A DNA stretch of 31,654 nucleotides from a virus. Below are positions 398 through 29,566 of this stretch, piece by piece. The translations under genes and the position numbers were made by a program. Under the pieces are notes generated by a model. It was not told the origin of the DNA. It worked only from the letters and a program-made list of their open reading frames with translations, and searched no databases. Numbering within the stretch: the stretch's first letter is position 1; every line of letters begins with the position of its first letter. The DNA is taken from UHGV virus genome UHGV-1544975; one strand, written 5' to 3'.

Positions 398-409
398 GTG
401 ACATGTCAC
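398..409. repeat. 12-bp perfect palindrome GTGACATGTCAC, copy 1 of 3
   Basis: Exact match to copies at 17880..17891 and 20145..20156; overlaps the stop codon of 406..702. Confidence 0.8.
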
Positions 410-7690: not shown

Positions 7691-8235
7691 TATAATCCTC
7701 CGGGTAATCTGGTTCCTGCTGCTGCCCCGATTGGCGCAGGAGTTCTTTGAGTAAACGGACTCCACGTCCCACCAAACATCTGGTATGCACCGTATGCCTT
7801 CAGAGGCGCAGTGAGCAATGTTGTTGCTGCTCCCACATTCCCCTGTTTACGGGCTGAACTGGCTTCTGCTTTATAGTTGGCAGCCTGAACCTGATAACCG
7901 TAAGCCTCGCGTTGCGCGTTATTCACCGTCGTCAGCGAATCAAGAGCGCCAAACTGGGCAGTGTCGCCAAATATATCCAGCGCGTTACCGGTAGATAAAT
8001 CGGCGCCGGTCGCCCCCATTGTCGCCGCCTGTGTACCAAGCCGCTGTCGTGTCTCTCTGCGCCGTTGCTCAGCTTCAGCGTTACCTCTGTTTATTGCATC
8101 ATTTGCCTGAGCTGTGGCTATATCTGCGTTCGCTTCTGCAACCTTCGAGGCATACTTTCCCTGTTGGTACTGGGTGTATGCCTGAATGCCACTCATGGCG
8201 AGCATTGCGCCACCAGCAATAACCGGATCGCACAT
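7690..8235 (-). CDS. T7 gp14-like internal virion protein B (181 aa)
   Basis: N-terminus MCDPVIAGGAMLAMSGIQA resembles T7 gp14 N-terminus MCWAAAIPIAISGAQA from memory; size and position fit. Confidence 0.4.
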   Translation of the reverse strand: MCDPVIAGGAMLAMSGIQAYTQYQQGKYASKVAEANADIATAQANDAINRGNAEAEQRRRETRQRLGTQAATMGATGADLSTGNALDIFGDTAQFGALDSLTTVNNAQREAYGYQVQAANYKAEASSARKQGNVGAATTLLTAPLKAYGAYQMFGGTWSPFTQRTPAPIGAAAGTRLPGGL

Positions 8236-16876: not shown

Positions 16877-16965
16877 ATCAATGACTCCGTACGCAATTAA
16901 ATTATTACCAATTTAACCACATATGATTTATTTATCGTAGACAGTTGACATTTAATGCACGAATT

Positions 16966-16982
16966 ATTACCTTTCAGGTAAG
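16966..16982. promoter_or_regulatory. Operator-like palindrome ATTACC-TTTCA-GGTAAG upstream of the portal operon
   Basis: One of about nine copies of the ATTACC-N5-GGTAA motif. Confidence 0.45.
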
Positions 16983-17303
16983 TAAATGGTTCATTCCGGT
17001 TATTAACCTGACTGGCTTGTCGTTAAATTGAACAGGTGGAGTGAGCTTTTATTTTGAGCAGTACGGCGTATGGCACATGCGCCGATAGCGGTCTGGATAC
17101 GTTTAAGGGGCACCCTCCCTTGCTCGGGCAAACGAACCAGGTAGCCGGAATGTGCAAGTCGAGCGGTTTTATTCCGCGCACGGGGATTCACCATCCCGGC
17201 GATTCGGTGTGACGCCTCGGAAGAGACGAGGGTACAACGATGAGAGCATTTATGGAGCCGCGACAAAGTGTGGCGCCTTAACAGGCTAAGTGCTCTCAGC
17301 GTT

Positions 17304-17380
17304 GTGGCATTAGCTCAGTTGGACAGAGCAACCGCCTTCTAAGCGGTTGGTCGCAGGTTCGAATCCTGCATGCCACGCCA
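17304..17380 (+). tRNA. tRNA-Arg (anticodon UCU), 77 nt including 3' CCA
   Basis: Folded by hand: perfect 7-bp acceptor stem GTGGCAT/ATGCCAC, D-stem GCTC/GAGC, anticodon stem ACCGC/GCGGT, loop CTTCTAA, T-arm GCAGG-TTCGAAT-CCTGC, discriminator G, CCA. Confidence 0.9.
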
Positions 17381-17423
17381 GAATCACGCCTAAGGACCGT
17401 GATGCCAGAAGTTCCAGGTGCTT

Positions 17424-17465
17424 GGCGGTGATGGTTTCCCTTGAAGGACTATCACCGCCCTTTTT
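17424..17465 (+). terminator. Rho-independent terminator after the tRNA (GGCGGTGAT...ATCACCGCC then CTTTTT)
   Basis: 9-bp stem plus T-run. Confidence 0.6.
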
Positions 17466-17543
17466 ACAGCAGGACGCCATTGCGATGACTTCATGCTGTA
17501 AACCAGTACAGCCACGGAAGGCATAACTCATTGCTTCCAGTTC

Positions 17544-17567
17544 GCCCGGTTCGCCGGGCATTTTTTT
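17544..17567 (+). terminator. Second terminator-like hairpin (GCCCGG-UUCG-CCGGGC then 7 T) directly upstream of the DUF2829-like gene RBS
   Basis: 6-bp GC stem, UUCG tetraloop, 7-T tract; RBS AAGGTGAG follows immediately. Confidence 0.6.
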
Positions 17568-17578
17568 AAGGTGAGATT

Positions 17579-17875
17579 ATGAGCGAAACATCAACAGTAT
17601 CTTTCTCCACTGCTTTGTCATCACTCAAAGATGGTAAGCGCATTGCACGTGCCGGATGGAATGGCAAAGGCATGTATCTGCAACTGGTTAAGCCACCGCA
17701 ATCGGCCACTCCGAACGAGTGGCGATTTGACGTTACATGCGGTGACGAGTATACATTTGTACCTGGCGTTAAACTTCTACCGTGGATTGGGATGAAAACT
17801 GCTGACGGTTGCTTTGTACCGTGGCTGGCATCTCAAACCGATCTGCTATCTGATGACTGGATTGTAATTCAATAA
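17579..17875 (+). CDS. DUF2829-like small protein (98 aa), candidate Tad2-like anti-Thoeris protein
   Basis: Strong RBS; motifs ARAGWNGKGMYL and PWLASQTDLLSDDW match my recollection of DUF2829; opposite strand to flanking late genes. Confidence 0.5.
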   Translation: MSETSTVSFSTALSSLKDGKRIARAGWNGKGMYLQLVKPPQSATPNEWRFDVTCGDEYTFVPGVKLLPWIGMKTADGCFVPWLASQTDLLSDDWIVIQ

Positions 17876-17879
17876 CACC

Positions 17880-17891
17880 GTGACATGTCAC
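17880..17891. repeat. 12-bp perfect palindrome GTGACATGTCAC, copy 2 of 3
   Basis: Exact match; between the DUF2829-like gene and the large terminase 3' end. Confidence 0.8.
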
Positions 17892-17895
17892 AAAC

Positions 17896-17922
17896 AGCCA
17901 GCCTATGAGCTGGCTTTGTTTT
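17896..17922. terminator. Terminator hairpin (AGCCAGC-N6-GCTGGCT then TTTGTTTT) at a convergent gene junction
   Basis: 7-bp stem with T-rich tail on the plus strand. Confidence 0.5.
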
Positions 17923-17965
17923 ATCCTCACCAGAGGATATCAACGACATTATCCCCACCAGCGGA

Positions 17966-19441
17966 TTAAGCATAGGGATCGTAATCTGTAATGGCCTTGC
18001 CTTGCTGGTTCTGCTGACCTGGAATTCGCAGACGCTTCGACACAGGGAAAGCAAACGTCAGCAATAGCGCATCGCCTTTACCAGGAGAACGCCCAAGCCG
18101 CTCCTTGATATCTTCCTTCGGTTCGATAACGATTTTACCGTCCACTCGAACTTTGTACTCTGCCGCCGACAGGTCGTCCGCTGTTTCCTGGTCATCAAGC
18201 ATGCCGCCCAGCCTCAGCCATGTCTTGCATGAGTTGAACATCTCCCCGCGCTTATTGAGCATCTGCGGGTCAGTAGACGCGCCACCGAACGGAACAAGTT
18301 GCCATGTACGACCCCAGCCATCACCGATTGACTTCAGACCAGTTCCGTAACCGAAGTCGATGAACACTGCGTCAGCCTGGTACTGGTCTTCAAAGTCAGC
18401 GATACGCTTCGCCATAATCAGATCGTCAGTGGTCTTGTTGCCGGTCCACAGCACCTTACTGTGCAGCCCCTGCCGCAGATATATCACCGCGTCATCAACA
18501 CCGGAGTATGCCGGGTCAACGCCGATTATCACCGGAGCATGTGCAACCTGCGCAGCGGTGACCACCCGTTTCATTGCCTCGTCAGTAAGTCCGGTAGGGA
18601 TAAACTGCAATTCAGATGCATCCGGGAATATGCCGCGCACACGGATTTTAACGAAGTCGCTATCTTCCCCGTAGTCATCAACCCATTTCTGCAACTGCTG
18701 TTTGTTAGTGCCTTCCACCGTCCGGCTGTCAATCTGCGCAGTTTTCCAGCGGTGTTTGTATTTGCGGAAACATTCGCGAAAACGCCCGGTATTACGTGTA
18801 GGGTTTCCGAACGCCACCCAGATAATCTCAGTGTCTTCGTCCGTAAGCGCACCCTCAGCAACTTCCCACACCAGATCCGCAATGTTCGACGCTTCATCGA
18901 ATACCACGATGATGCGTTTGCGCTCGTTGTGTAGTCCGGCGAATGCCTCAGTGTTGTGCTCAGACCAGGGGATTGCGTCAGCTCGCCACCGCTTGTCGTG
19001 CCCAGGATCATTGCTGTACATCGCAGTAGCGGTACAGGTAAACCAGTCTTTCGTGATAGCAAGGTTCGACCACTTGATAATTTCCGGCCAGGTCTTCGTT
19101 CGTAGCTGGTTGTCGGTGTTGGCGGTCACCACGACCTTACAATCCTCGCAAGTGGACATGCCCCAGTTGATCAGCATTGAGATGAATGCGGATTTACCAA
19201 TACCGTGACCCGAAGCACGTGCCAGCATAAGCGGCTGATAGCGCGTCTCTGGATTCTGCAGGTGATCACGTATCTCTCGGAACGCATCAGCCTGCCACTG
19301 ACGTGGGCCGGTAGCATGTGCCAGTTCAGTCCCCTCTTCCCCCCACGGGAACGCATAGAGGGCATAGCCAAGCGGATCGTGAGTGAACCCTGCAATATCC
19401 TCGATCAACTGCTCTTCAGGAGATAACGCTGTATCTGTCAC
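17966..19441 (-). CDS. Terminase large subunit (491 aa)
   Basis: Walker A-like GHGIGKS, Walker B-like IIVVFDEAS, acidic C-terminal nuclease-like region; overlaps the small-subunit stop. Confidence 0.9.
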   Translation of the reverse strand: MTDTALSPEEQLIEDIAGFTHDPLGYALYAFPWGEEGTELAHATGPRQWQADAFREIRDHLQNPETRYQPLMLARASGHGIGKSAFISMLINWGMSTCEDCKVVVTANTDNQLRTKTWPEIIKWSNLAITKDWFTCTATAMYSNDPGHDKRWRADAIPWSEHNTEAFAGLHNERKRIIVVFDEASNIADLVWEVAEGALTDEDTEIIWVAFGNPTRNTGRFRECFRKYKHRWKTAQIDSRTVEGTNKQQLQKWVDDYGEDSDFVKIRVRGIFPDASELQFIPTGLTDEAMKRVVTAAQVAHAPVIIGVDPAYSGVDDAVIYLRQGLHSKVLWTGNKTTDDLIMAKRIADFEDQYQADAVFIDFGYGTGLKSIGDGWGRTWQLVPFGGASTDPQMLNKRGEMFNSCKTWLRLGGMLDDQETADDLSAAEYKVRVDGKIVIEPKEDIKERLGRSPGKGDALLLTFAFPVSKRLRIPGQQNQQGKAITDYDPYA

Positions 19442-20034
19442 TGATTACCATCCTGACGTTCTTTGAGTCGCTTCCTGGCTGCTGCTATGCGATCAGCAAT
19501 TGTCACATTCACATTAACATCCAGACGTTCTTTGAACGCGTTGACATCAACATGCTTACCAATCAGCTCAAGGTTCTTCACCTTGTCAGGCCATTTAATT
19601 TTTTTGAGGATTGTCTCTATCGAATCCTCGTTCATGTTCATGATGGTCGATGACAGATCAAAGCCACTAAGCGTAGTGCGCCAGATTTTCGGCCACTCAC
19701 GGATTGGTTTAAGGCTCCCATCGTCGTTGAGGATGTCGATCACGTCCATCTGGTCGATCTGCACCAGGCGCATGAGAACGTAATCAGCACTGACGCGCAT
19801 TCGTTTGTTGCGCTCCTCCATCAACTCGGCAATCCGTTTTTGAATGCGTTCATCGCGCATCATGACACTGGCTTTAACTGCCGCTGTATTTGGGGAGAAT
19901 CCTGCGTTAATCGCTGCCTGAGTCTGGTTTTCAGGCGTTTTGATGTATGACTGGCAATAAGCCTCCTGCATTGCTGTTAGTGGCTTAAATTGCGTTGATT
20001 TGCGTTTATAGGTTTTAGGTTCAGCAGGCATCAT
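19438..20034 (-). CDS. Terminase small subunit (about 198 aa)
   Basis: Small-terminase-like DNA-binding N-terminus (TAMQEAYCQSYIKTPENQTQAAINAGFS); track start 20112 is probably over-extended; tandem ATGs at 20034 and 20031 follow GGTGG. Confidence 0.65.
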   Translation of the reverse strand: MMPAEPKTYKRKSTQFKPLTAMQEAYCQSYIKTPENQTQAAINAGFSPNTAAVKASVMMRDERIQKRIAELMEERNKRMRVSADYVLMRLVQIDQMDVIDILNDDGSLKPIREWPKIWRTTLSGFDLSSTIMNMNEDSIETILKKIKWPDKVKNLELIGKHVDVNAFKERLDVNVNVTIADRIAAARKRLKERQDGNQ

Positions 20035-20050
20035 AACCACCGTGGTAATA

Positions 20051-20067
20051 GTTACCGTTGTGGTAAT
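20051..20067. promoter_or_regulatory. Operator-like palindrome (minus-strand reading ATTACC-ACAAC-GGTAAC) with an extra GGTAAT half-site, just upstream of the terminase gene
   Basis: Motif copy read directly; lies inside the spurious N-terminal extension of the track ORF. Confidence 0.45.
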
Positions 20068-20069
20068 AG

Positions 20070-20103
20070 TACCATACAAAATAAAGCCGCCATAGTTGGC
20101 GGC
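20070..20103 (-). terminator. Rho-independent terminator (GCCGCCA-N4-TGGCGGC then UUUAUUUUGUAU on the minus strand) separating accessory genes from the terminase operon
   Basis: 7-bp perfect stem, T-rich tail on the minus strand. Confidence 0.55.
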
Positions 20104-20144
20104 AGTATTCAAAACCCATCAAATTCATCATGCATAATCTACTC

Positions 20145-20156
20145 GTGACATGTCAC
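20145..20156. repeat. 12-bp perfect palindrome GTGACATGTCAC, copy 3 of 3
   Basis: Exact match; overlaps the stop codon of 20153..20494 in the same register as copy 1. Confidence 0.8.
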
Positions 20157-20494
20157 ACTATTAATTTCGTTTCATGCCAGCCTTTAGTCACCCAGCATTG
20201 CGAGTCACCATTACACGGGCATGAATTAACTGGAACTCTCTCGCCGCACTTACCGCAACATTTTCTGCTGATCGATTTTATACGCCCGCGCACGCGTGCA
20301 TCATCCTGGCGGATCAGTAACGCTATATACTCACCAAATTCGTAAGGCGCACGCCCGGGGCGACGCGTGGCACAGTTACGCTCCAGCATTTCAATTTCCT
20401 GAGCATCCAGCACAATCTCCAGCTTACGTACACCGGATGCAGCTTGTCTGGCTCTCTGAGCGGCTTTGCGCTCTGCTGCTGATTTAGCCATCAA
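20153..20494 (-). CDS. Cys-rich small protein (113 aa), possible zinc-binding regulator
   Basis: Basic N-terminus; C-terminal cysteine cluster CCGKCGERVPVNSCPCNGDSQCW; sits where lambdoid phages carry Q. Confidence 0.4.
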   Translation of the reverse strand: MMAKSAAERKAAQRARQAASGVRKLEIVLDAQEIEMLERNCATRRPGRAPYEFGEYIALLIRQDDARVRGRIKSISRKCCGKCGERVPVNSCPCNGDSQCWVTKGWHETKLIV

Positions 20495-20765
20495 TATTTA
20501 CCTTTATCGCGAACACCTTTACCGGTTTATCGCCGAAGTGCGGATGTGTGATTGTCTTGATTTCATATCCGTCATACGGAATATCAATTCTGCGGCTGGA
20601 ATCGTCGCGCTTCGGATATCCCTTTGTGATAATCAGACGGTCATACTTACGGTTAACGAGTCGCTTTTTCCAGTAGTCATTACACAAGCGATACTCTTCC
20701 GTTTTCTCTCCGCGAATCATGGCATTGAAGTATTCACCTTTTACGGCAAGTTGCAGGTTAGCCAT
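20484..20765 (-). CDS. Small protein with possible ASCH/PUA-like fold
   Basis: Likely start at the internal ATG overlapping the upstream stop; LQLAVKGEYFNAMIRGEKTEEYR resembles ASCH-domain N-termini. Confidence 0.35.
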   Translation of the reverse strand: MANLQLAVKGEYFNAMIRGEKTEEYRLCNDYWKKRLVNRKYDRLIITKGYPKRDDSSRRIDIPYDGYEIKTITHPHFGDKPVKVFAIKVNIDG

Positions 20766-21025
20766 TACCGCACCTCCAGTCTCCATACCGCCTGACCAAT
20801 CCGGCTGGCATGGTTATCTTTAGATACTGTTCCGTCTTTAGCAATCTCCATAAGAATTTTGCGCAAATCTGCCGAGCGCCATTCTTCATCAGGAAATTCC
20901 TTCTCCATTGCCAACCGCAGATTCCAGGTTGCTATCGTGAATGGATATTCCCCGCCGAGAGCTTTCTCTTGCAAGGCAGCACGGGAACGCATCACCTGCA
21001 AAACCTTCTCTTTTACATCCATCAT
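20765..21025 (-). CDS. Hypothetical protein (86 aa)
   Basis: ORF translationally coupled to neighbours. Confidence 0.4.
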   Translation of the reverse strand: MMDVKEKVLQVMRSRAALQEKALGGEYPFTIATWNLRLAMEKEFPDEEWRSADLRKILMEIAKDGTVSKDNHASRIGQAVWRLEVR

Positions 21026-21840
21026 TTTGCCTCCTGCGGCGGTTCTGGTAGCTGCATCCAGTGGGTTACCTCTTTGAGATACAGGTCTTCGCCATCACCG
21101 TCATCCCAAGTGGGATTGCCATCATTAAACCAGTCGCCATATACGCCGACCTGAGTGTTGGGGATGTTTGGTGGGTAGTTGTTTTTAAAGTCAGCTGCTA
21201 ACACATAGCATTGTCGCTCTCCCATTTCTGGCATCTGCTCACTACAGCTTATCCAACCATCCGGAGTTACCGGAGAATTGCCACCCTGAACAGTAGGCAT
21301 ATCCGGACCTTTGCGAATCGCCCTGGCAAGATCGATTGGGTCGTCGTACAACCAGTCACCTGTTTGCGGATGATTGGCTTCTGCCAATTGTGCAGCCCAC
21401 TCCAGGCCGTCTTTGTGTCCTTGCAGATAGTCCAGCGGTAACTCATCACTATTACTTACAGGTTCGGCCTGAAGCATGGCGGCGCGGCAGGCGTTCCAGC
21501 CGACAGCTTTTCCGTGTTCAAACGCGCTGTCAAAGTCATCATCAATTTCCATCGCAGCGGGCACAGATACCGGCGCTGGCGGGGCGGTGTAAAGCGGCGT
21601 TACTTCTCGCAGCGGGTCGGCATAAGCATTGCCACTATCGAAGCTGACGTTGTTTTTTGCCCCGCCTCCTGACAGCAACCACGCCACCGGCTCCTGCTCC
21701 ATGCCAGCCGTCAGCGCTTCCAGTGCGATTTTGAAGATTTGCGCATCGAGTTGCGCTTCTTCAAAATCAGGGTAATGGGTTGTTACCGCAAGACGGCGCT
21801 CAAGCTCCTCAATCAACTGCTCTTTCGTAAATTCAGCCAT
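21022..21840 (-). CDS. DUF551-like C-terminal domain protein (272 aa)
   Basis: C-terminal ...GWISCSEQMPE...VTHWMQLPEPP matches my recollection of the DUF551 signature common in enterobacterial prophages. Confidence 0.5.
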   Translation of the reverse strand: MAEFTKEQLIEELERRLAVTTHYPDFEEAQLDAQIFKIALEALTAGMEQEPVAWLLSGGGAKNNVSFDSGNAYADPLREVTPLYTAPPAPVSVPAAMEIDDDFDSAFEHGKAVGWNACRAAMLQAEPVSNSDELPLDYLQGHKDGLEWAAQLAEANHPQTGDWLYDDPIDLARAIRKGPDMPTVQGGNSPVTPDGWISCSEQMPEMGERQCYVLAADFKNNYPPNIPNTQVGVYGDWFNDGNPTWDDGDGEDLYLKEVTHWMQLPEPPQEAK

Positions 21841-21844
21841 ATCC

Positions 21845-22216
21845 CTACTCCCCCTTGATGCCAGCGGCGCTAAGCTTGGTATTCACATCACCTTCAAAAA
21901 TAGGCAGTACACCAATTGCAGCGGCCCAGTTTTTAGCTAACTCAGGGTCAGATGTCTCGTCGGTGTAGTCTGATGCCCGCCACCCAATCAGTCGTTTCTG
22001 ACCAGGAATGTCAGAGTTTCGCTTCTCCGTTGCTTGCTCTAGAGCATTAAGAAGTGTACGTATTTCATGCTGCTGAGTAGAGATGCTTGAGTCTTTGGCT
22101 TCCAGCTCATCAAGCAGCGCCAGCACATCCCGAGTGGGGACCATAAAGTTCGGCATGAAGTTATCTTTTGCCTTTTCTGCTGTTAGGCGCAGCGCCTGTT
22201 TGTCGATGTTGCTCAT
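21845..22216 (-). CDS. Hypothetical coiled-coil protein (123 aa), possibly Ead/Ea22-like
   Basis: Position and composition only. Confidence 0.35.
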   Translation of the reverse strand: MSNIDKQALRLTAEKAKDNFMPNFMVPTRDVLALLDELEAKDSSISTQQHEIRTLLNALEQATEKRNSDIPGQKRLIGWRASDYTDETSDPELAKNWAAAIGVLPIFEGDVNTKLSAAGIKGE

Positions 22217-22866
22217 TGCGCGTCCCCCTTGCGAATCTGGGCGGCGATGTCTTCGAGTACACCATCAGCGAACGAGCGATCGAAATCGCCTTCCGGCGCA
22301 TCATCCATAAACTCTGTGGAGGTCAGTATCATTCGTGCGATGTCCGCAGCGTTCTTCGCTGTGTCTTCGATAAACCCAGCCTCCCATGCAGCCAGCATTC
22401 GGTTGGCAACAAAGTGAGCGCCTTCCTTGTGGGCTTGCGCCCGCACTTCAGCCAGGAAAGCATCGGTGGCTGGAATGGGCTTTTGTGGTGATATAGCAAT
22501 GCGAATTGTCTCAAGGTCTGGATCTGTTTCCGCTGCTGGCACCTTGATATAACCCACCTGCACCCCATTCATGATGAACCTGCGACGGTCATCACATATC
22601 GCCTTTAGCCCCGCATTCTCCGCCGCCAGCGCCGAAAACTTCTCGTGTGCCAACTTAACAGCTGCATCAGCCTGCTTAATTGACTCAATCGCTTTCTGTT
22701 GGTCTTCGGCCAGCGCATTAGCACGCACCAGTTGCACTTCCAGTTGCGTTGCCAAATCGCTGATCAGCTTTGCCACACTGCGCATATCAACGGCACCACA
22801 TTCTGCTTTCAGTTCCGAAGCCATCTCATGCCCGGCGGAAACTAACCATTTGATATTACCGTCCAT
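22213..22866 (-). CDS. Hypothetical protein (217 aa), Ala-rich coiled-coil N-terminal half
   Basis: ORF with 4-nt overlap to the next gene. Confidence 0.4.
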   Translation of the reverse strand: MDGNIKWLVSAGHEMASELKAECGAVDMRSVAKLISDLATQLEVQLVRANALAEDQQKAIESIKQADAAVKLAHEKFSALAAENAGLKAICDDRRRFIMNGVQVGYIKVPAAETDPDLETIRIAISPQKPIPATDAFLAEVRAQAHKEGAHFVANRMLAAWEAGFIEDTAKNAADIARMILTSTEFMDDAPEGDFDRSFADGVLEDIAAQIRKGDAQ

Positions 22867-22927
22867 CTTTACCCTCGCTTATCCACATAACTTATTGATT
22901 ACATTGATAACTAAAAAGATCGTCGAT

Positions 22928-23272
22928 TCAGAACTCTTCGATGTTCCAGCCACCACCTGCTTTCTTTGGCTTAACCGTTACCCCGATGATTCGGAACGGA
23001 TACTGATCTGCGGCGACTTTGGTTTTCACTCTGGCGTCATCGGTCCAGAAACCTTTCACTTCGTGTAGTTCCATCTCGCCGGTGGCGAGCATCACAGCAA
23101 AATCGGGCGTATAGAACGTGTTGTCAGCTAACCGCAGCTTGATACCCTCGAATCGATACCAGGCGATTTCCCCTGCACGTTTACGCAGCTCAAGGTGCTG
23201 GCAATACGCAGATTCTGTTTTGTTCATCTGGCCTGTTTTGAGTCGACCAAGAGCCTGTATCTGTTTTCTCAT
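22928..23272 (-). CDS. Small protein with PD-(D/E)xK nuclease-like motif (DUF1064-like?)
   Basis: Motif ...YTPDFAV...ELHEVKG consistent with a D...(D/E)xK core. Confidence 0.35.
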   Translation of the reverse strand: MRKQIQALGRLKTGQMNKTESAYCQHLELRKRAGEIAWYRFEGIKLRLADNTFYTPDFAVMLATGEMELHEVKGFWTDDARVKTKVAADQYPFRIIGVTVKPKKAGGGWNIEEF

Positions 23273-23274
23273 GA

Positions 23275-23353
23275 TTTACCTCTAAGGTAATTAAAAACCA
23301 CATAAGACACGAAATCAATAGAGTTTAGAATATTTTATTACCCAACAGGTAAT
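23275..23353. promoter_or_regulatory. Two operator-like palindromes (TTTACC-TCTAA-GGTAAT at 23275..23291; ATTACC-CAACA-GGTAAT at 23337..23353)
   Basis: Read directly; the first abuts the start codon of 22928..23272. Confidence 0.5.
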
Positions 23354-23389
23354 TATCAAGGCGTAAAAAAATGCGCTATCGCGCTGGTA

Positions 23390-24190
23390 TTACTTGATAA
23401 ATCCTGCCGCCTTTCCCCGCCTGTATTCCTCCATCAGCCACTGCGCCGGTGTTATTCCCCCAAGGGTGGCGGCGTTAGGCATGCACCCGAAACTTCGCCC
23501 TGGTGGATGGTAAACGTCTCTCCCTGTGTCCGGAGGCGTACTCATGGGTTCTGGCTTTGCCTGTATGCTGATCACCGGATCGGGTATCTGCTGTCCGGAA
23601 GCCACCTTTTTCGCCCAATCATCGAGCAGCCTGCGCGCGTGTTTCTCAACCTCTATCTCGCTAAGCTGGCGCTGATACATTGCACGGCGGGTATCACATA
23701 CGACCCAGTACATAACCGGATGCCGCCACGGGAATCTTTCGGGACCACCAGGATATAAACTTTTTTCCTTGCTGTACCGGTGAAACTCCGTCATCACATC
23801 GTCAATGGTGACGCCAAGAACCATCTTGCTGTCTTTGCACCACTTGATGAATTGCCCTGGCGACGGCCAGAACGGAGATTCACTGGCGCGGGCGTGGCGC
23901 ATACCAGCAGAAACCTGTTCACGGGTTCGGATCCCCCCTTCGGCAAACGCAGCAATCCACTGCTGTTTTGCAGCAACTTCCTGCTCTGGCGTCTTCAGGT
24001 TGGTTACCACTGCCGCCGGAAACAGTTGTTTCAGCTGTTTGAAAAGGGCATCAACAAGCCTCTCTGCTGACATGTTCACCACGTTGTCATTGTTGGTGTA
24101 CTGATGCTCATAACCTGACATGCGAGAAAGGGCTTCTCCGTCACGGTTTTGTATCGCGGTAAAAACGTTGTTCACAAGAAATCCTCCCAT
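23390..24190 (-). CDS. Replication protein P-like (helicase loader), lambda P family
   Basis: Segments FPAAVVTNLK...QQWIAAFAEGGIRTREQVSAGMRHARA...PFWPSPGQFIKWCKD align with remembered lambda P FPASLANRD...RRQWVLAFRENGITTMEQVNAGMRVARR...PFLPSPGQFVAWCRE. Confidence 0.75.
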   Translation of the reverse strand: MGGFLVNNVFTAIQNRDGEALSRMSGYEHQYTNNDNVVNMSAERLVDALFKQLKQLFPAAVVTNLKTPEQEVAAKQQWIAAFAEGGIRTREQVSAGMRHARASESPFWPSPGQFIKWCKDSKMVLGVTIDDVMTEFHRYSKEKSLYPGGPERFPWRHPVMYWVVCDTRRAMYQRQLSEIEVEKHARRLLDDWAKKVASGQQIPDPVISIQAKPEPMSTPPDTGRDVYHPPGRSFGCMPNAATLGGITPAQWLMEEYRRGKAAGFIK

Positions 24191-24987
24191 GCTTCAGGGC
24201 TGTTCCAGTGCGGAACGTTGTTATCAGGTAATGTTGATTGCTTCTGTCTGCTAATCTGCAGCCGCCTTGCCAGCTTCTGCTCCCACTGTGCCTGATGGTA
24301 TGCCTTACCCTCAGCCATCCAGTAAATTCTGAACTCTGCAAGTTCCTGTGCCGTTGGCAGACTGTCCAGGTAGATCCCCTGCAAGGAGCTTTTCCGAAGA
24401 AAGTCATCTGATGGCTGCCATTGTTCATGCATGACAAATTTGCCTAATTGCCCTGGCCCACCAGGAGGAACAAAGTTATTCATCACGGCGTTGTTTGCGC
24501 CGGGGTCATGAGGCACAGAATCCCCGTTTTTTGTCCTGCTCTCCCTCTCTTGGTTAAATGACTGGTTATATGACTGGTTCTGGATCCCGTTTTTGGGATC
24601 ATTCAACATCCCGTTTTTGGGATCATTCAACATCCCGTTTTTGGGTATATTCCCGTTTTCGGTAACATTACCGTTTTCGGGTTCATTGCCCCCCTCCCGG
24701 TTGCCTTTAATGTTCCCGTTTTTGGTTATATTAAGAGAGAAAACCCGCACTCTTTTCGTCGCTCCCTTTCTCTCTCCGGTATCTGAAATAAGCCCCATTT
24801 TCATGAGCGATATAAGCCCGGCCTGCACGGTTTTTTTATTCAGGCAAGTGTCTTTAACGAGGCGTTCTATGCTGGGGTAGCAGAGGTTATATTCATCGGC
24901 TCTGTCAGCCATCGAGAGCAGTATGAGCTTTAATGACGAGCTACCTGGATCTGTCTCCCAGGCCCAATCTGTTGCATGTCTGCTCAT
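24172..24987 (-). CDS. Replication initiator, lambda O-like (271 aa), with embedded iterons
   Basis: N-terminal HTH-like region; central Asn/Gly/Pro-rich repeats encoded by tandem DNA repeats; immediately upstream of the P-like gene. Confidence 0.65.
   Translation of the reverse strand: MSRHATDWAWETDPGSSSLKLILLSMADRADEYNLCYPSIERLVKDTCLNKKTVQAGLISLMKMGLISDTGERKGATKRVRVFSLNITKNGNIKGNREGGNEPENGNVTENGNIPKNGMLNDPKNGMLNDPKNGIQNQSYNQSFNQERESRTKNGDSVPHDPGANNAVMNNFVPPGGPGQLGKFVMHEQWQPSDDFLRKSSLQGIYLDSLPTAQELAEFRIYWMAEGKAYHQAQWEQKLARRLQISRQKQSTLPDNNVPHWNSPEAWEDFL
24585..24732. repeat. Iteron array (putative replication origin) inside the O-like gene
   Basis: TCCCGTTTTTGGGATCATTCAACA occurs twice in tandem, followed by degenerate copies (TCCCGTTTTTGGGTATAT, TCCCGTTTTCGGTAACATTA, CCGTTTTCGGGTTCATTGCC, TTCCCGTTTTTGGTTATATT). 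Confidence 0.65.
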
Positions 24988-25002
24988 GATTAATCTCCGC
25001 TA

Positions 25003-25203
25003 TCAGCTTGAATATTGTGGGGAGGAATTAATCATGATCTGCTTAATCTCTGCCCTGATGCGACGGTTTGATTCCATGGTGCACTCAACACAGTGTCCGT
25101 TGTAAACCCAGCGTTCACTGTCATGTCCGTGCTTACATGGTTTTCCGGTGTAGTAGCGTTTAAGTCCGCGCTTTGCGGCATCAATACGTGTAATGATTTC
25201 CAT
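25003..25203 (-). CDS. Small zinc-finger-like protein (about 66 aa) in the cII position
   Basis: Cys/His cluster YTGKPCKHGHDSERWVYNGHCVEC; start assumed at the internal ATG; track start 25266 possible. Confidence 0.35.
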   Translation of the reverse strand: MEIITRIDAAKRGLKRYYTGKPCKHGHDSERWVYNGHCVECTMESNRRIRAEIKQIMINSSPQYSS

Positions 25204-25282
25204 GGTAAGCCCTGTTATTAGTATTTGGATTACGGTTATTTTGTGCTGACACAAAAAAAAGATCAACCAGATTTGGTTTTTT

Positions 25283-25298
25283 ATTACCTTTGAGGTAC
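25283..25298. promoter_or_regulatory. Imperfect operator-like palindrome ATTACC-TTTGA-GGTAC
   Basis: Read directly. Confidence 0.35.
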
Positions 25299-25353
25299 GG
25301 ATAGATATGAAAAGACCGCCGGGTGGCGGTCTACAGAGGGTTGTAGCTGGATA

Positions 25354-25584
25354 TCATGAGTAGAAGAAGTATGCCAGTTCTGCTTTTGAGCGCAGCCATT
25401 GTCTTGTTTTACAGGCTTTAAAAAGCCCATTCATCAATACTTTACCTGGCATTTTGCGCTTACCTGTTAAGTGAGTCTGGATATAGTGACTCGTCGTTCC
25501 GGCTTCCTGTGCGAAGGCTTCACGCTCATCCGGAGTAAGTGCAAGCCAGTGCTTTTTGAAATCGAAATGTCCGTTATCGCTCAT
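25354..25584 (-). CDS. Cro-like small HTH regulator (76 aa)
   Basis: First gene of the minus-strand replication operon, divergent from the repressor-like gene; helix-turn-helix-like segment. Confidence 0.45.
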   Translation of the reverse strand: MSDNGHFDFKKHWLALTPDEREAFAQEAGTTSHYIQTHLTGKRKMPGKVLMNGLFKACKTRQWLRSKAELAYFFYS

Positions 25585-25738
25585 AGCTATTGCCTGATAT
25601 TTATTTCAGATAATAAATATTCACCCATAAGGTAACAAAAATCAAGGATAGTTACCTATGGGGTGCATTTACCTGTTGGGTAATATTGCTTTAAATTGAA
25701 TCATCTACTGATTCATATATGAGGCGATTTTCCAGAAA
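25585..25738. promoter_or_regulatory. Immunity switch intergenic region with divergent promoters and operators
   Basis: AT-rich inverted repeat ATATTTATT-N6-AATAAATAT (25597..25620); half-sites GGTAAC (25631..25636) and GTTACC (25651..25656); palindrome TTTACC-TGTTG-GGTAAT (25668..25684); possible minus-strand promoter TTGTTA-17-TATTAT. Confidence 0.55.
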
Positions 25739-26323
25739 ATGAAAAGTATCCAGGACGTCCGCAGGCAAAATCTCAACGACTTGATCGACCGTGAATTCAA
25801 TGGTGTTCAGACGCGGATGGCAGAAAAACTTGGAACTCAGGCAAATCTGGTAAACCGCTGGGCTCTTGGCAAGAAGGTTATCGGCGACCAGGTTGCACGA
25901 AAAATTGAAGCTGCCGCCAATAAACCCCGTAACTGGCTTGATATTGATCGTTCGCTTTCTCAGGAGGGTTTTCAGCCTGTCGGACCAAGCGACATTGGTC
26001 AACTGGCGGCTCACAACCTGGAACGCTGGATGAGCGAAAGCCGCGACCTTTCAACACAGGGAAAACTTCACCGCGCATCCGGCGTAGCCCAGGTGACAAT
26101 CAGCCGCCTGTTAAACAATGAGGTCAGCGTTTCCATTTCCACCCTGGAGAATGTTGCATCCGCATTCGGGCGTCATGGCTATGAATTACTGATTCACCCG
26201 CACGACCCTGCGACCATCAACTATGATCGCTCGCGCTACGCATTGTTACCCGAAACCGAGAAAGCAAAGATCGAAAGTTACATTGAATTTGTCATCAACC
26301 AGAACGAAAAAAGCAAACAATAA
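25739..26323 (+). CDS. Repressor-like protein with two HTH domains (194 aa), no S24 peptidase domain
   Basis: N-terminal and central segments both look HTH-like; divergent from the Cro-like gene; followed by a terminator. Confidence 0.5.
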   Translation: MKSIQDVRRQNLNDLIDREFNGVQTRMAEKLGTQANLVNRWALGKKVIGDQVARKIEAAANKPRNWLDIDRSLSQEGFQPVGPSDIGQLAAHNLERWMSESRDLSTQGKLHRASGVAQVTISRLLNNEVSVSISTLENVASAFGRHGYELLIHPHDPATINYDRSRYALLPETEKAKIESYIEFVINQNEKSKQ

Positions 26324-26345
26324 AACCATAGTTTTCAGTAAGTAA

Positions 26346-26370
26346 GCCGCCTCATGGCGGCTTTTTTATT
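26346..26370 (+). terminator. Rho-independent terminator after the repressor-like gene (GCCGCC-TCAT-GGCGGC then TTTTTT)
   Basis: 6-bp GC stem plus 6-T run. Confidence 0.65.
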
Positions 26371-26379
26371 GCCAGATAG

Positions 26380-26458
26380 ATTACCTTACGGGTAATTTTT
26401 TTAACTCATATCTATTGACACCAAACCAAATAAGCATAATTATTACCCCAACGGTAAC
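26380..26458 (+). promoter_or_regulatory. Early-operon promoter flanked by two operator palindromes
   Basis: ATTACC-TTACG-GGTAAT (26380..26396); -35 TTGACA (26415..26420), 17-nt spacer, -10 AATTAT; ATTACC-CCAAC-GGTAAC (26442..26458) over the -10/+1. Confidence 0.5.
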
Positions 26459-28908: not shown

Positions 28909-29157
28909 ATGAAAGGTGCATTAGGTAAGAAAGAACTCCTGGCGGTGGTGCCACTGTCATGGAGCACTATCGACCGTATGGAGCGCGCAGGGGAATTTCC
29001 TAAACGCTGGTATATCACCGATAAACGCTGCGCATGGAACCGTGATGAAGTTGAGCGTTGGCTTGATGAACGTCAGGCAGCAAGCCCGGCAGAGTTCCAG
29101 GGTAAAAAGCCTCCTGTTCAGCAACGTGTATATCGTCCCGTGAGCAACGCTGCATGA
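28909..29157 (+). CDS. AlpA-like small DNA-binding protein (excisionase/regulator-like)
   Basis: Segment LLAVVPLSWSTIDRMERAGEFPKRWYITDKRCAWNRDEVERWLD fits the AlpA/Xis-type HTH pattern. Confidence 0.55.
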   Translation: MKGALGKKELLAVVPLSWSTIDRMERAGEFPKRWYITDKRCAWNRDEVERWLDERQAASPAEFQGKKPPVQQRVYRPVSNAA

Positions 29158-29266: not shown

Positions 29267-29566
29267 GTGAGAAAGTTAAGCCGACTTGAAAAATATCACA
29301 TGAATAAGGTTTCAATGCGCAGTCCGTCAAAGATTGTCGCCGTTACTCCTGCGGCGATAGAGATCGAAAAACGCGCGATTGAAAGAGAGAAAAAAGGGCA
29401 ATTCCGCATTGCCGCTCACCTTTGGCTTCAGTGTATGGATGTTGCTTCTGGTGATGTTGAACGTGCAAGGATCGCGGTTCGCAGGGACCAATGTATCACA
29501 AAAGGTAACGGCCTTCGCCGTGGCGACTATAGCGGTATAGGATGTTGCGGGGTGGTTTATGACTAA
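29267..29566 (+). CDS. Possible PerC/Pch-like (ANR family) transcriptional regulator
   Basis: Segment FRIAAHLWLQCMDVASGDVERARIAVRRDQC resembles my recollection of the PerC core pattern; GTG start per track. Confidence 0.3.
   Translation: MRKLSRLEKYHMNKVSMRSPSKIVAVTPAAIEIEKRAIEREKKGQFRIAAHLWLQCMDVASGDVERARIAVRRDQCITKGNGLRRGDYSGIGCCGVVYD

Follow-up and report, generated by a model that had tools for sequence, protein, structure and literature searches.

Which protein reads the 17-bp palindrome ATTACC-N5-GGTAAT that recurs along the virus genome UHGV-1544975, and which genes lie under its control? The whole stretch analyzed (hereafter the window) has 31,654 nucleotides and is a Uetakevirus (epsilon15/phiV10-like) prophage located at guaA of Escherichia coli. 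It is 97-98% identical to the Uetakevirus genomes PAS61, phiv142-3, TL-2011b, ZX5, and phiV10, and 100% identical to the prophage at guaA of E. coli ECSC054; its immunity region was found in 561 of 5426 complete E. coli genomes (about 10%). Our analysis indicates, with a probability that we put at roughly 0.85, that the palindromes are operators of the prophage lysogeny repressor Rep, encoded at 25739..26323. The Cro-like protein encoded at 25354..25584 probably uses the same operators.

Sites were scored against ATTACC-N5-GGTAAT by the number of mismatches, and the expected number was obtained from 100 dinucleotide-preserving shuffles. The window contains two exact copies, at 23337 and 26380, and 10 sites with two mismatches or fewer, against 0.79 expected; none of the 100 shuffles reached 10. 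The scan returned each of the sites that a first-pass annotation, made from the sequence alone, had placed at 16966, 20051, 23275, 23337, 25283, 25668, 26380, and 26442. For the one at 25283 the position stood, while the end moved from 25298 to 25299 to complete the 17-mer. Two elements had not been listed: a second site next to terS (20033..20049, 18 bp from 20051) and, at a distance of exactly 62 bp from 16966, an isolated but conserved ATTACC half-site at 16904.

The gene map was built from the list of open reading frames and the annotations of close relatives. Intergenic DNA makes up 7.6% of the window, yet it holds nine of the 10 sites (binomial p = 8e-10). The tenth (7692..7708, two mismatches) is coding and falls at the end of a structural gene. 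It has an orthologous match in phiV10 (12525) and none at that place in epsilon15 or SPC32H, and we dropped it as an operator; from these sequences it is probably a chance match.

For the host control, 111.6 kb were taken from the same E. coli chromosome but not from the prophage. This DNA gave seven matches with two mismatches or fewer, which is about chance, and only one of them had one mismatch or fewer; the whole prophage (38.4 kb) gave 16 and 10, respectively. The motif is therefore not equally frequent in coding or host DNA. The near-perfect host match lies between ychF and ycgV. It was considered as a phage remnant and rejected as chance, because there is no similarity outside the 17-mer. 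Beyond the window, the same prophage carries further sites at L007 5846 (before int), 38082, 39148, and 39529..39545, the last a perfect site between the LexA box/ant region and the tail-fibre gene.

The enrichment extends to the relatives. There are 15 matches in phiV10, 15 in BUCT554, 17 in Kp4865-1, and 18 in SPC32H, with about one expected in each, and epsilon15 is also strongly enriched, within this range of 15-18 (about one expected). The hosts of the motif-bearing phages belong to Escherichia, Salmonella, Enterobacter, and Klebsiella. The motif is palindromic, and across 60 sites positions 2-6 and 12-16 are nearly invariant.

Part of this set has been annotated before. The RefSeq record of epsilon15 (NC_004775), the founding phage of the genus, has seven protein_bind features labeled "repressor / lysogeny", and in our scan all seven were perfect ATTACC-N5-GGTAAT sequences. 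One each precedes terS, gp3/portal, and the tail fibre, three are at the early-left promoter beside the repressor gene, and one comes after the replication genes; these positions match the places of the motif in the window or the rest of the prophage. The consensus and the locations are thus the same in both phages, although the window sites are less perfect (two exact copies vs. seven). The epsilon15 record omits the switch-region sites, the second site of the pairs, the 62-bp module described below, and the promoter direction at the gp3 site. The predicted repressor-binding sites of epsilon15 are reportedly linked to a study by Kropinski et al. that appeared in 2007 in Virology 369:234. Full-text literature searches with the motif string returned nothing relevant.

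Enrichment, intergenic placement, and the epsilon15 annotation together uphold the idea that the palindrome is an operator, and copies ahead of late and other transcription units were confirmed. The first-pass annotation had taken such copies as a sign of a global regulator, as opposed to a lambda-style CI. This is a false contrast, as epsilon15 annotates all these sites as repressor/lysogeny sites: in this genus, regulation across the genome is the task of the lysogeny repressor itself.

The two genes that had been picked as candidate regulators were well chosen. The first, rep (25739..26323, + strand), encodes 194 amino acids and matched the SPC32H Repressor (PDB 5D50) in a phmmer search with E = 3.5e-42 across residues 1-190, that is, over its full length. 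Overall identity to the SPC32H protein is about 42%, and the action of Rep in the window phage is read from this homology. The homology gives Rep an N-terminal helix-turn-helix (HTH) DNA-binding domain, a middle dimerisation domain, and a C-terminal domain for tetramerisation and Ant binding. Pfam assigned HTH families only (HTH_3), and it found no S24 peptidase (LexA-like self-cleaving) domain in Rep. The second gene, divergent from rep (25354..25584, - strand), encodes a Cro-like HTH protein of 76 amino acids that matched PHROG 35, "transcriptional repressor", with E = 5.6e-13.

The SPC32H antirepression system of Rep, Ant, and LexA is said to have been described by Kim and Ryu in J Virol in 2013 and by Kim et al. 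in PNAS in 2016, with PDB entries 5D50 and 5D4Z. According to two later open papers that recount this work (Kim et al., 2016), SPC32H Rep has DNA-binding, dimerisation, and tetramerisation domains, the tetramer binds palindromic DNA with DNA-binding pairs drawn from different dimers, and the tetrameric antirepressor Ant splits the Rep tetramer into dimers. The window phage shares with SPC32H the full-length Rep homology and the operator motif. Outside the window (L007 39195..39452), its prophage encodes an Ant homologue that has 88% identity to the SPC32H protein, and a LexA box, CTGTATATTTATACAG, lies upstream of the Ant gene (L007 39476..39491). Since a Rep homologue, an Ant homologue, and a LexA box all occur in the ECSC054 prophage, the whole Rep/Ant/LexA system is present there. 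Membership of the window phage in the Uetakevirus Rep/Ant immunity system (epsilon15 gp38, SPC32H Rep) is borne out by the Rep homology, by sites at the epsilon15 positions, and by Ant under a LexA box. In ZX5, overexpression of the ORF21 repressor is reported to cause a drop of more than 99.9% in the transcripts for lysin and holin; the same ZX5 paper reports the ORF21 sequence to be identical to that of the phiV10 repressor.

An alignment of five phages showed that the Rep helix NLVNRW is invariant despite 42-76% overall Rep identity. In Cro, the HTH segment AGTTSHYIQ.HLTG is kept in all five, and one T/V position is the sole variation. The constancy of both helices fits the invariant half-site TTACC. 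We also compared helix and motif among bacterial genomes, a weak test that took one genome per species and scored presence or absence only. The motif adjoins all six Rep homologues with an (N/T)LVNRW helix, found in Superficieibacter, Erwinia, Klebsiella, two Citrobacter species, and Scandinavium, and it is absent beside the distant homologues, five in all, whose helix differs. No replacement repeated palindrome was found at these five loci when one was sought. A scan of viral contigs yielded Rep loci that were 99-100% identical only and was uninformative on helix-motif covariation. The shared half-site and the near-identical helices suggest that a single immunity specificity may be common to the genus, unlike the situation in lambdoid phages.

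Our proposal for how Rep would act is the following. A Rep tetramer would carry two pairs of N-terminal HTH domains, each pair reading one ATTACC-N5-GGTAAT, and nearly every terminator-delimited transcription unit opens with such sites. In four units, an operator pair 62 bp apart encloses a sigma-70 promoter, the proximal operator covering the -10 element and the predicted start site. A distance of 62 bp is about six helical turns and puts both operators on the same face of the DNA, and such a pair would suit bridging by one Rep tetramer. In the lysogen, Rep at all sites would silence the whole lytic programme: replication, packaging, and the RNA/tRNA/anti-defence cassette. DNA damage would then cause LexA cleavage and release of the antirepressor Ant, and Ant would dismantle the Rep tetramer and free all units together. 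We propose this route of induction through LexA, Ant, and Rep because of the homology to SPC32H.

The 62-bp spacing appears in the sequence data. Over six genomes, neighboring sites are 62 bp apart in 11 cases, with one further case of 63 bp, and 17-18 bp apart in six cases. In the five-phage alignment, three paralogous modules have the order operator, 45 nucleotides, operator, which is 62 bp from center to center. Each aligned module has a TTGA.. -35 hexamer at a fixed position and a -10 element whose end reaches into the beginning of the proximal operator. Counting the decayed one described below, four promoter/operator modules are conserved across the five phages, and most sites of the window belong to them. 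The start sites of their promoters are predicted.

The early-left module is the clearest example in the window. Its perfect distal operator (26380..26396) lies directly after the rep terminator (26344..26363), and its proximal operator (26442..26458), 62 bp away, overlaps the -10 element and the start site. Between them is a PL-like promoter on the + strand, TTGACA-17-AATTAT, already proposed in the first-pass annotation; our scan recovered it at 26415..26443, and it is conserved in the five phages. Both the coordinates and the alignment confirmed that the two sites bracket this promoter.

The module after gene P is oriented the other way. Its distal operator (23337..23353) is perfect, and a putative promoter, TTGATT-17-TTTAAT (23290..23318, - strand), stands in the same register as PL in the alignment. 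This promoter would serve the resolvase-like DUF1064 gene together with those that follow it. The proximal operator (23275..23291, 62 bp from the distal one) lies over the -10 element and the Shine-Dalgarno sequence of the DUF1064 gene, and it ends two nucleotides before the ATG at 23272.

The fourth module, after cro, is decayed. Its distal element is the operator at 25283..25299, just downstream of the cro terminator (25332..25313, - strand), and of the proximal element a remnant ATTACC half-site is left at the -10. The candidate promoter of the replication operon (25237..25266, - strand) consists of TTGATC (25266..25261), 18 nucleotides, and AAAATA (25242..25237), and the first gene of the operon starts at the ATG at 25203. 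In this module GGTTGATCTTTTTT and CAAAAT.ACC are invariant in the five phages, and the -35 element, GGTTGATC, is invariant as well.

The site at 16966..16982 had been assigned to the portal operon. This is probably not correct, as the site overlaps the -10 region of a conserved + strand promoter, here called Pm, that reads away from the portal gene. The Pm module spans 16904..16973 on the + strand and comprises the lone half-site ATTACC (16904..16909), TTGACA (16945..16950), and a -10 element that is either AATTAT (16962..16967) or TACCTT (16968..16973). We base the reassignment on the TTGACA, which is conserved in all five aligned phages and arranged as in the other modules, on the content of the + strand downstream (an RNA, a tRNA-Arg, a terminator, and a Tad2-like gene), on SPC32H, in which the tRNA-Arg is annotated on the strand opposite the structural genes, and on the portal side, where no convincing promoter was found. 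The epsilon15 record places the orthologous site before gp3/portal. The site could also hinder transcription into gp3.

Pm most likely transcribes a structured RNA and then tRNA-Arg(UCU), a region that covers 17055..17380. The conserved RNA extends from about 17055 to 17303 on the + strand. RNAalifold applied to five copies gave 41 pairs, nine of them with compensatory double changes, and the predicted helices contain G-U pairs that are valid on the + strand only. A search of Rfam 15 with three copies matched no family, and the RNA is present but unannotated in 86 phage records. These records include lambdoid phages, among them cdtI, in which it lies right after cI, and P1/P7, in which it lies between trnI and ban, in the C1-controlled ban operon. 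The tRNA-Arg(UCU) was called by ARAGORN at 17304..17380 (+ strand); the phiV10 record has no annotation for it, though its sequence is identical across the gene. A terminator follows at 17424..17459 (+ strand, terminator scan), and then a Tad2-like anti-Thoeris gene at 17579..17875 (+ strand; Pfam PF11195, E = 3e-24). The Tad2-like gene is flanked by terL and the portal gene and is read in the direction opposite to that of the structural genes.

Three operators, O1, O2, and O3, occupy the switch region between rep and cro (25620..25684). O1, TTCACCcataaGGTAAC, at 25620..25636, has three mismatches and lies within the spacer and -10 element of the rightward cro promoter; its epsilon15 orthologue is TTCACCAGAAAGGTAAT. 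O2, GTTACCtatggGGTGCA, at 25651..25667, is degenerate, with four mismatches, in the window and a good site in epsilon15 and SPC32H. O3, TTTACCTGTTGGGTAAT, at 25668..25684, is on the rep side and adjoins O2 (17 bp from center to center). The "extra half-sites" noted earlier at 25631..25656 are the ends of two degenerate full sites, O1 and O2. The putative cro promoter is PR-like (25617..25645, - strand), with TTGATT (25645..25640), 17 nucleotides, and GAATAT (25622..25617), and both hexamers are conserved in the five phages. The promoter scan gave an overlapping alternative for cro, TTGTTA-17-TATTAT, at 25638..25610.

Upstream of terS, the tandem pair 20033..20049 and 20051..20067 (18 bp apart) lies between a terminator (20103..20086) and the ATG at 20031, and it is kept in phiV10, epsilon15, SPC32H, and BUCT554. 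RefSeq and several phage records begin terS at the TTG at 20112, and with that start the terminator and both operators would be coding instead of intergenic. The ATG at 20031 aligns with the starts in epsilon15 and BUCT554 and is the probable true start.

Some points weigh against Rep as the reader of these sites. We infer the binding of Rep and Cro at each site from sequence. Rep and Cro occur together at all motif-bearing loci, so the comparison of helix and motif cannot separate the two as binders. In the window phage, the very operators of the switch, O1 and O2, are poor matches. At the terS pair, a sigma-70 promoter or a -35 element was sought in three phages and none was recognizable, so that occlusion of a promoter in the classical sense is not established for this pair. 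The terS sites may control a late promoter that depends on an activator, or Rep bound to them may form a roadblock just past the terminator. A roadblock, in place of a promoter operator, could apply to both the terS and the post-cro sites: bound Rep would stop read-through of the terminator in the manner of a stoperator, which is compatible with Rep binding. At both loci an intrinsic terminator on the gene strand ends only a few bases ahead of the sites, which agrees with this, as do the missing -35 at terS and the sites that abut its start codon. However, an activator-dependent late promoter would equally be without a -35, and downstream of the post-cro site there is the conserved TTGATC / AAAATA promoter, in register with the other modules. 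We regard roadblocks at these two loci as possible, though on the doubtful side.

The other explanations replace Rep as the reader or dispense with a DNA-binding protein. The palindrome might be bound by the Cro-like protein alone or by another phage regulator, and there are grounds to consider this: the Cro HTH is nearly invariant across the genus, and gp49-like (20153..20494), AlpA-like (28909..29157), and PerC-like (29267..29566) candidate regulators are conserved as well. Nevertheless, the sites carry the repressor label in the epsilon15 record, later accounts of SPC32H describe its Rep as palindrome-binding, and the densest and best sites flank rep. Moreover, a Cro that shares the operators of the repressor is the usual arrangement and hardly an alternative. 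We consider a reader other than Rep improbable. Still less probable is a host transcription factor whose motif was borrowed by the phage. Phages of four genera (Escherichia, Salmonella, Enterobacter, and Klebsiella) carry the same motif, which speaks for such a factor, but the single match with at most one mismatch in the 111.6 kb of host DNA, and nothing beyond chance overall, argue against it; we know of no enterobacterial factor with this consensus. The least credible option is that the palindromes work as RNA hairpins, in processing or attenuation. Each could fold into a 6-bp stem with a 5-nucleotide loop, but the hairpins are weak (mean minimum free energy, -3.9 kcal/mol), and several copies lie upstream of a -35 and would not be transcribed. 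Conservation at the 60 sites concerns the half-site sequence itself, beyond mere complementarity. The weak energies and this conservation of sequence rather than pairing led us to reject a hairpin function.

Rep as the reader of the palindromes places the window phage among known systems. As in lambda CI/Cro, the repressor and cro genes diverge from a region that holds three operators, the operators are 17-bp palindromes, and the same repressor controls an early-left promoter. The window phage differs from lambda in that Rep has no S24 autocleavage domain, with induction through an antirepressor, and in the tetrameric form of the repressor, which has two pairs for DNA binding. In addition, operators here occur at eight or more loci, packaging and accessory units included, whereas those of lambda are at OL and OR. 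Outside the equivalents of OL and OR are the sites at 25283, 23275/23337, 20033/20051, and 16966, and, beyond the window, those before the tail fibre and int. P1 C1 is likewise one lysogeny repressor that silences numerous dispersed operons by way of operators at their promoters, with an annotated C1 operator (Op72) at the ban operon, and P1 also employs an antirepressor. The window sites are symmetric and Rep is of the HTH_3/XRE type, whereas the operators of P1 lack symmetry and C1 is not related to Rep. Mycobacteriophages L5 and L1 are described as having many repressor "stoperator" sites over the genome, late regions included (PMC1934351). Those sites are 13 bp long, asymmetric, orientation-dependent in transcribed DNA, and read by unrelated proteins, whereas the window sites are palindromic and lie mostly on promoters.

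A more far-reaching version can be formulated. Rep would be the sole direct gatekeeper of every unit through a tetramer-bridged 62-bp clamp at each promoter, that of the counter-defence cassette included (the unclassified structured RNA that P1 and lambdoid phages also have, together with tRNA-Arg and Tad2); one immunity specificity would hold genus-wide over four host genera; and the late sites would be roadblocks after terminators. We think it rather unlikely that all of these hold jointly.

A second palindrome, GTGACATGTCAC, also occurs genus-wide. It has three exact copies in the window (398..409, 17880..17891, and 20145..20156) vs. 0.05 expected. Most copies recur at the same operon boundaries in epsilon15, phiV10, SPC32H, BUCT554, and Kp4865-1, and most adjoin an intrinsic terminator; in the window, two of them overlap a TGA stop codon. 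It is also at these boundaries that accessory genes vary between phages.

The operator arrangement is already known in kind, with sites annotated in epsilon15 and a repressor family that has been studied structurally. As stated, the operator finding is a rediscovery of the epsilon15-annotated set, under a repressor family with a solved structure. What is added here (the 62-bp modules, the anatomy of the switch, the direction of Pm, and the probable true start of terS) amounts to minor refinements. They are of use for annotation: the phiV10 and ECSC054 RefSeq records list none of these sites, and their terS begins at a TTG that lies upstream of two. The 62-bp modules, together with the operator on the promoter of the RNA/tRNA/anti-defence cassette, give testable predictions on how tetrameric Rep engages DNA.

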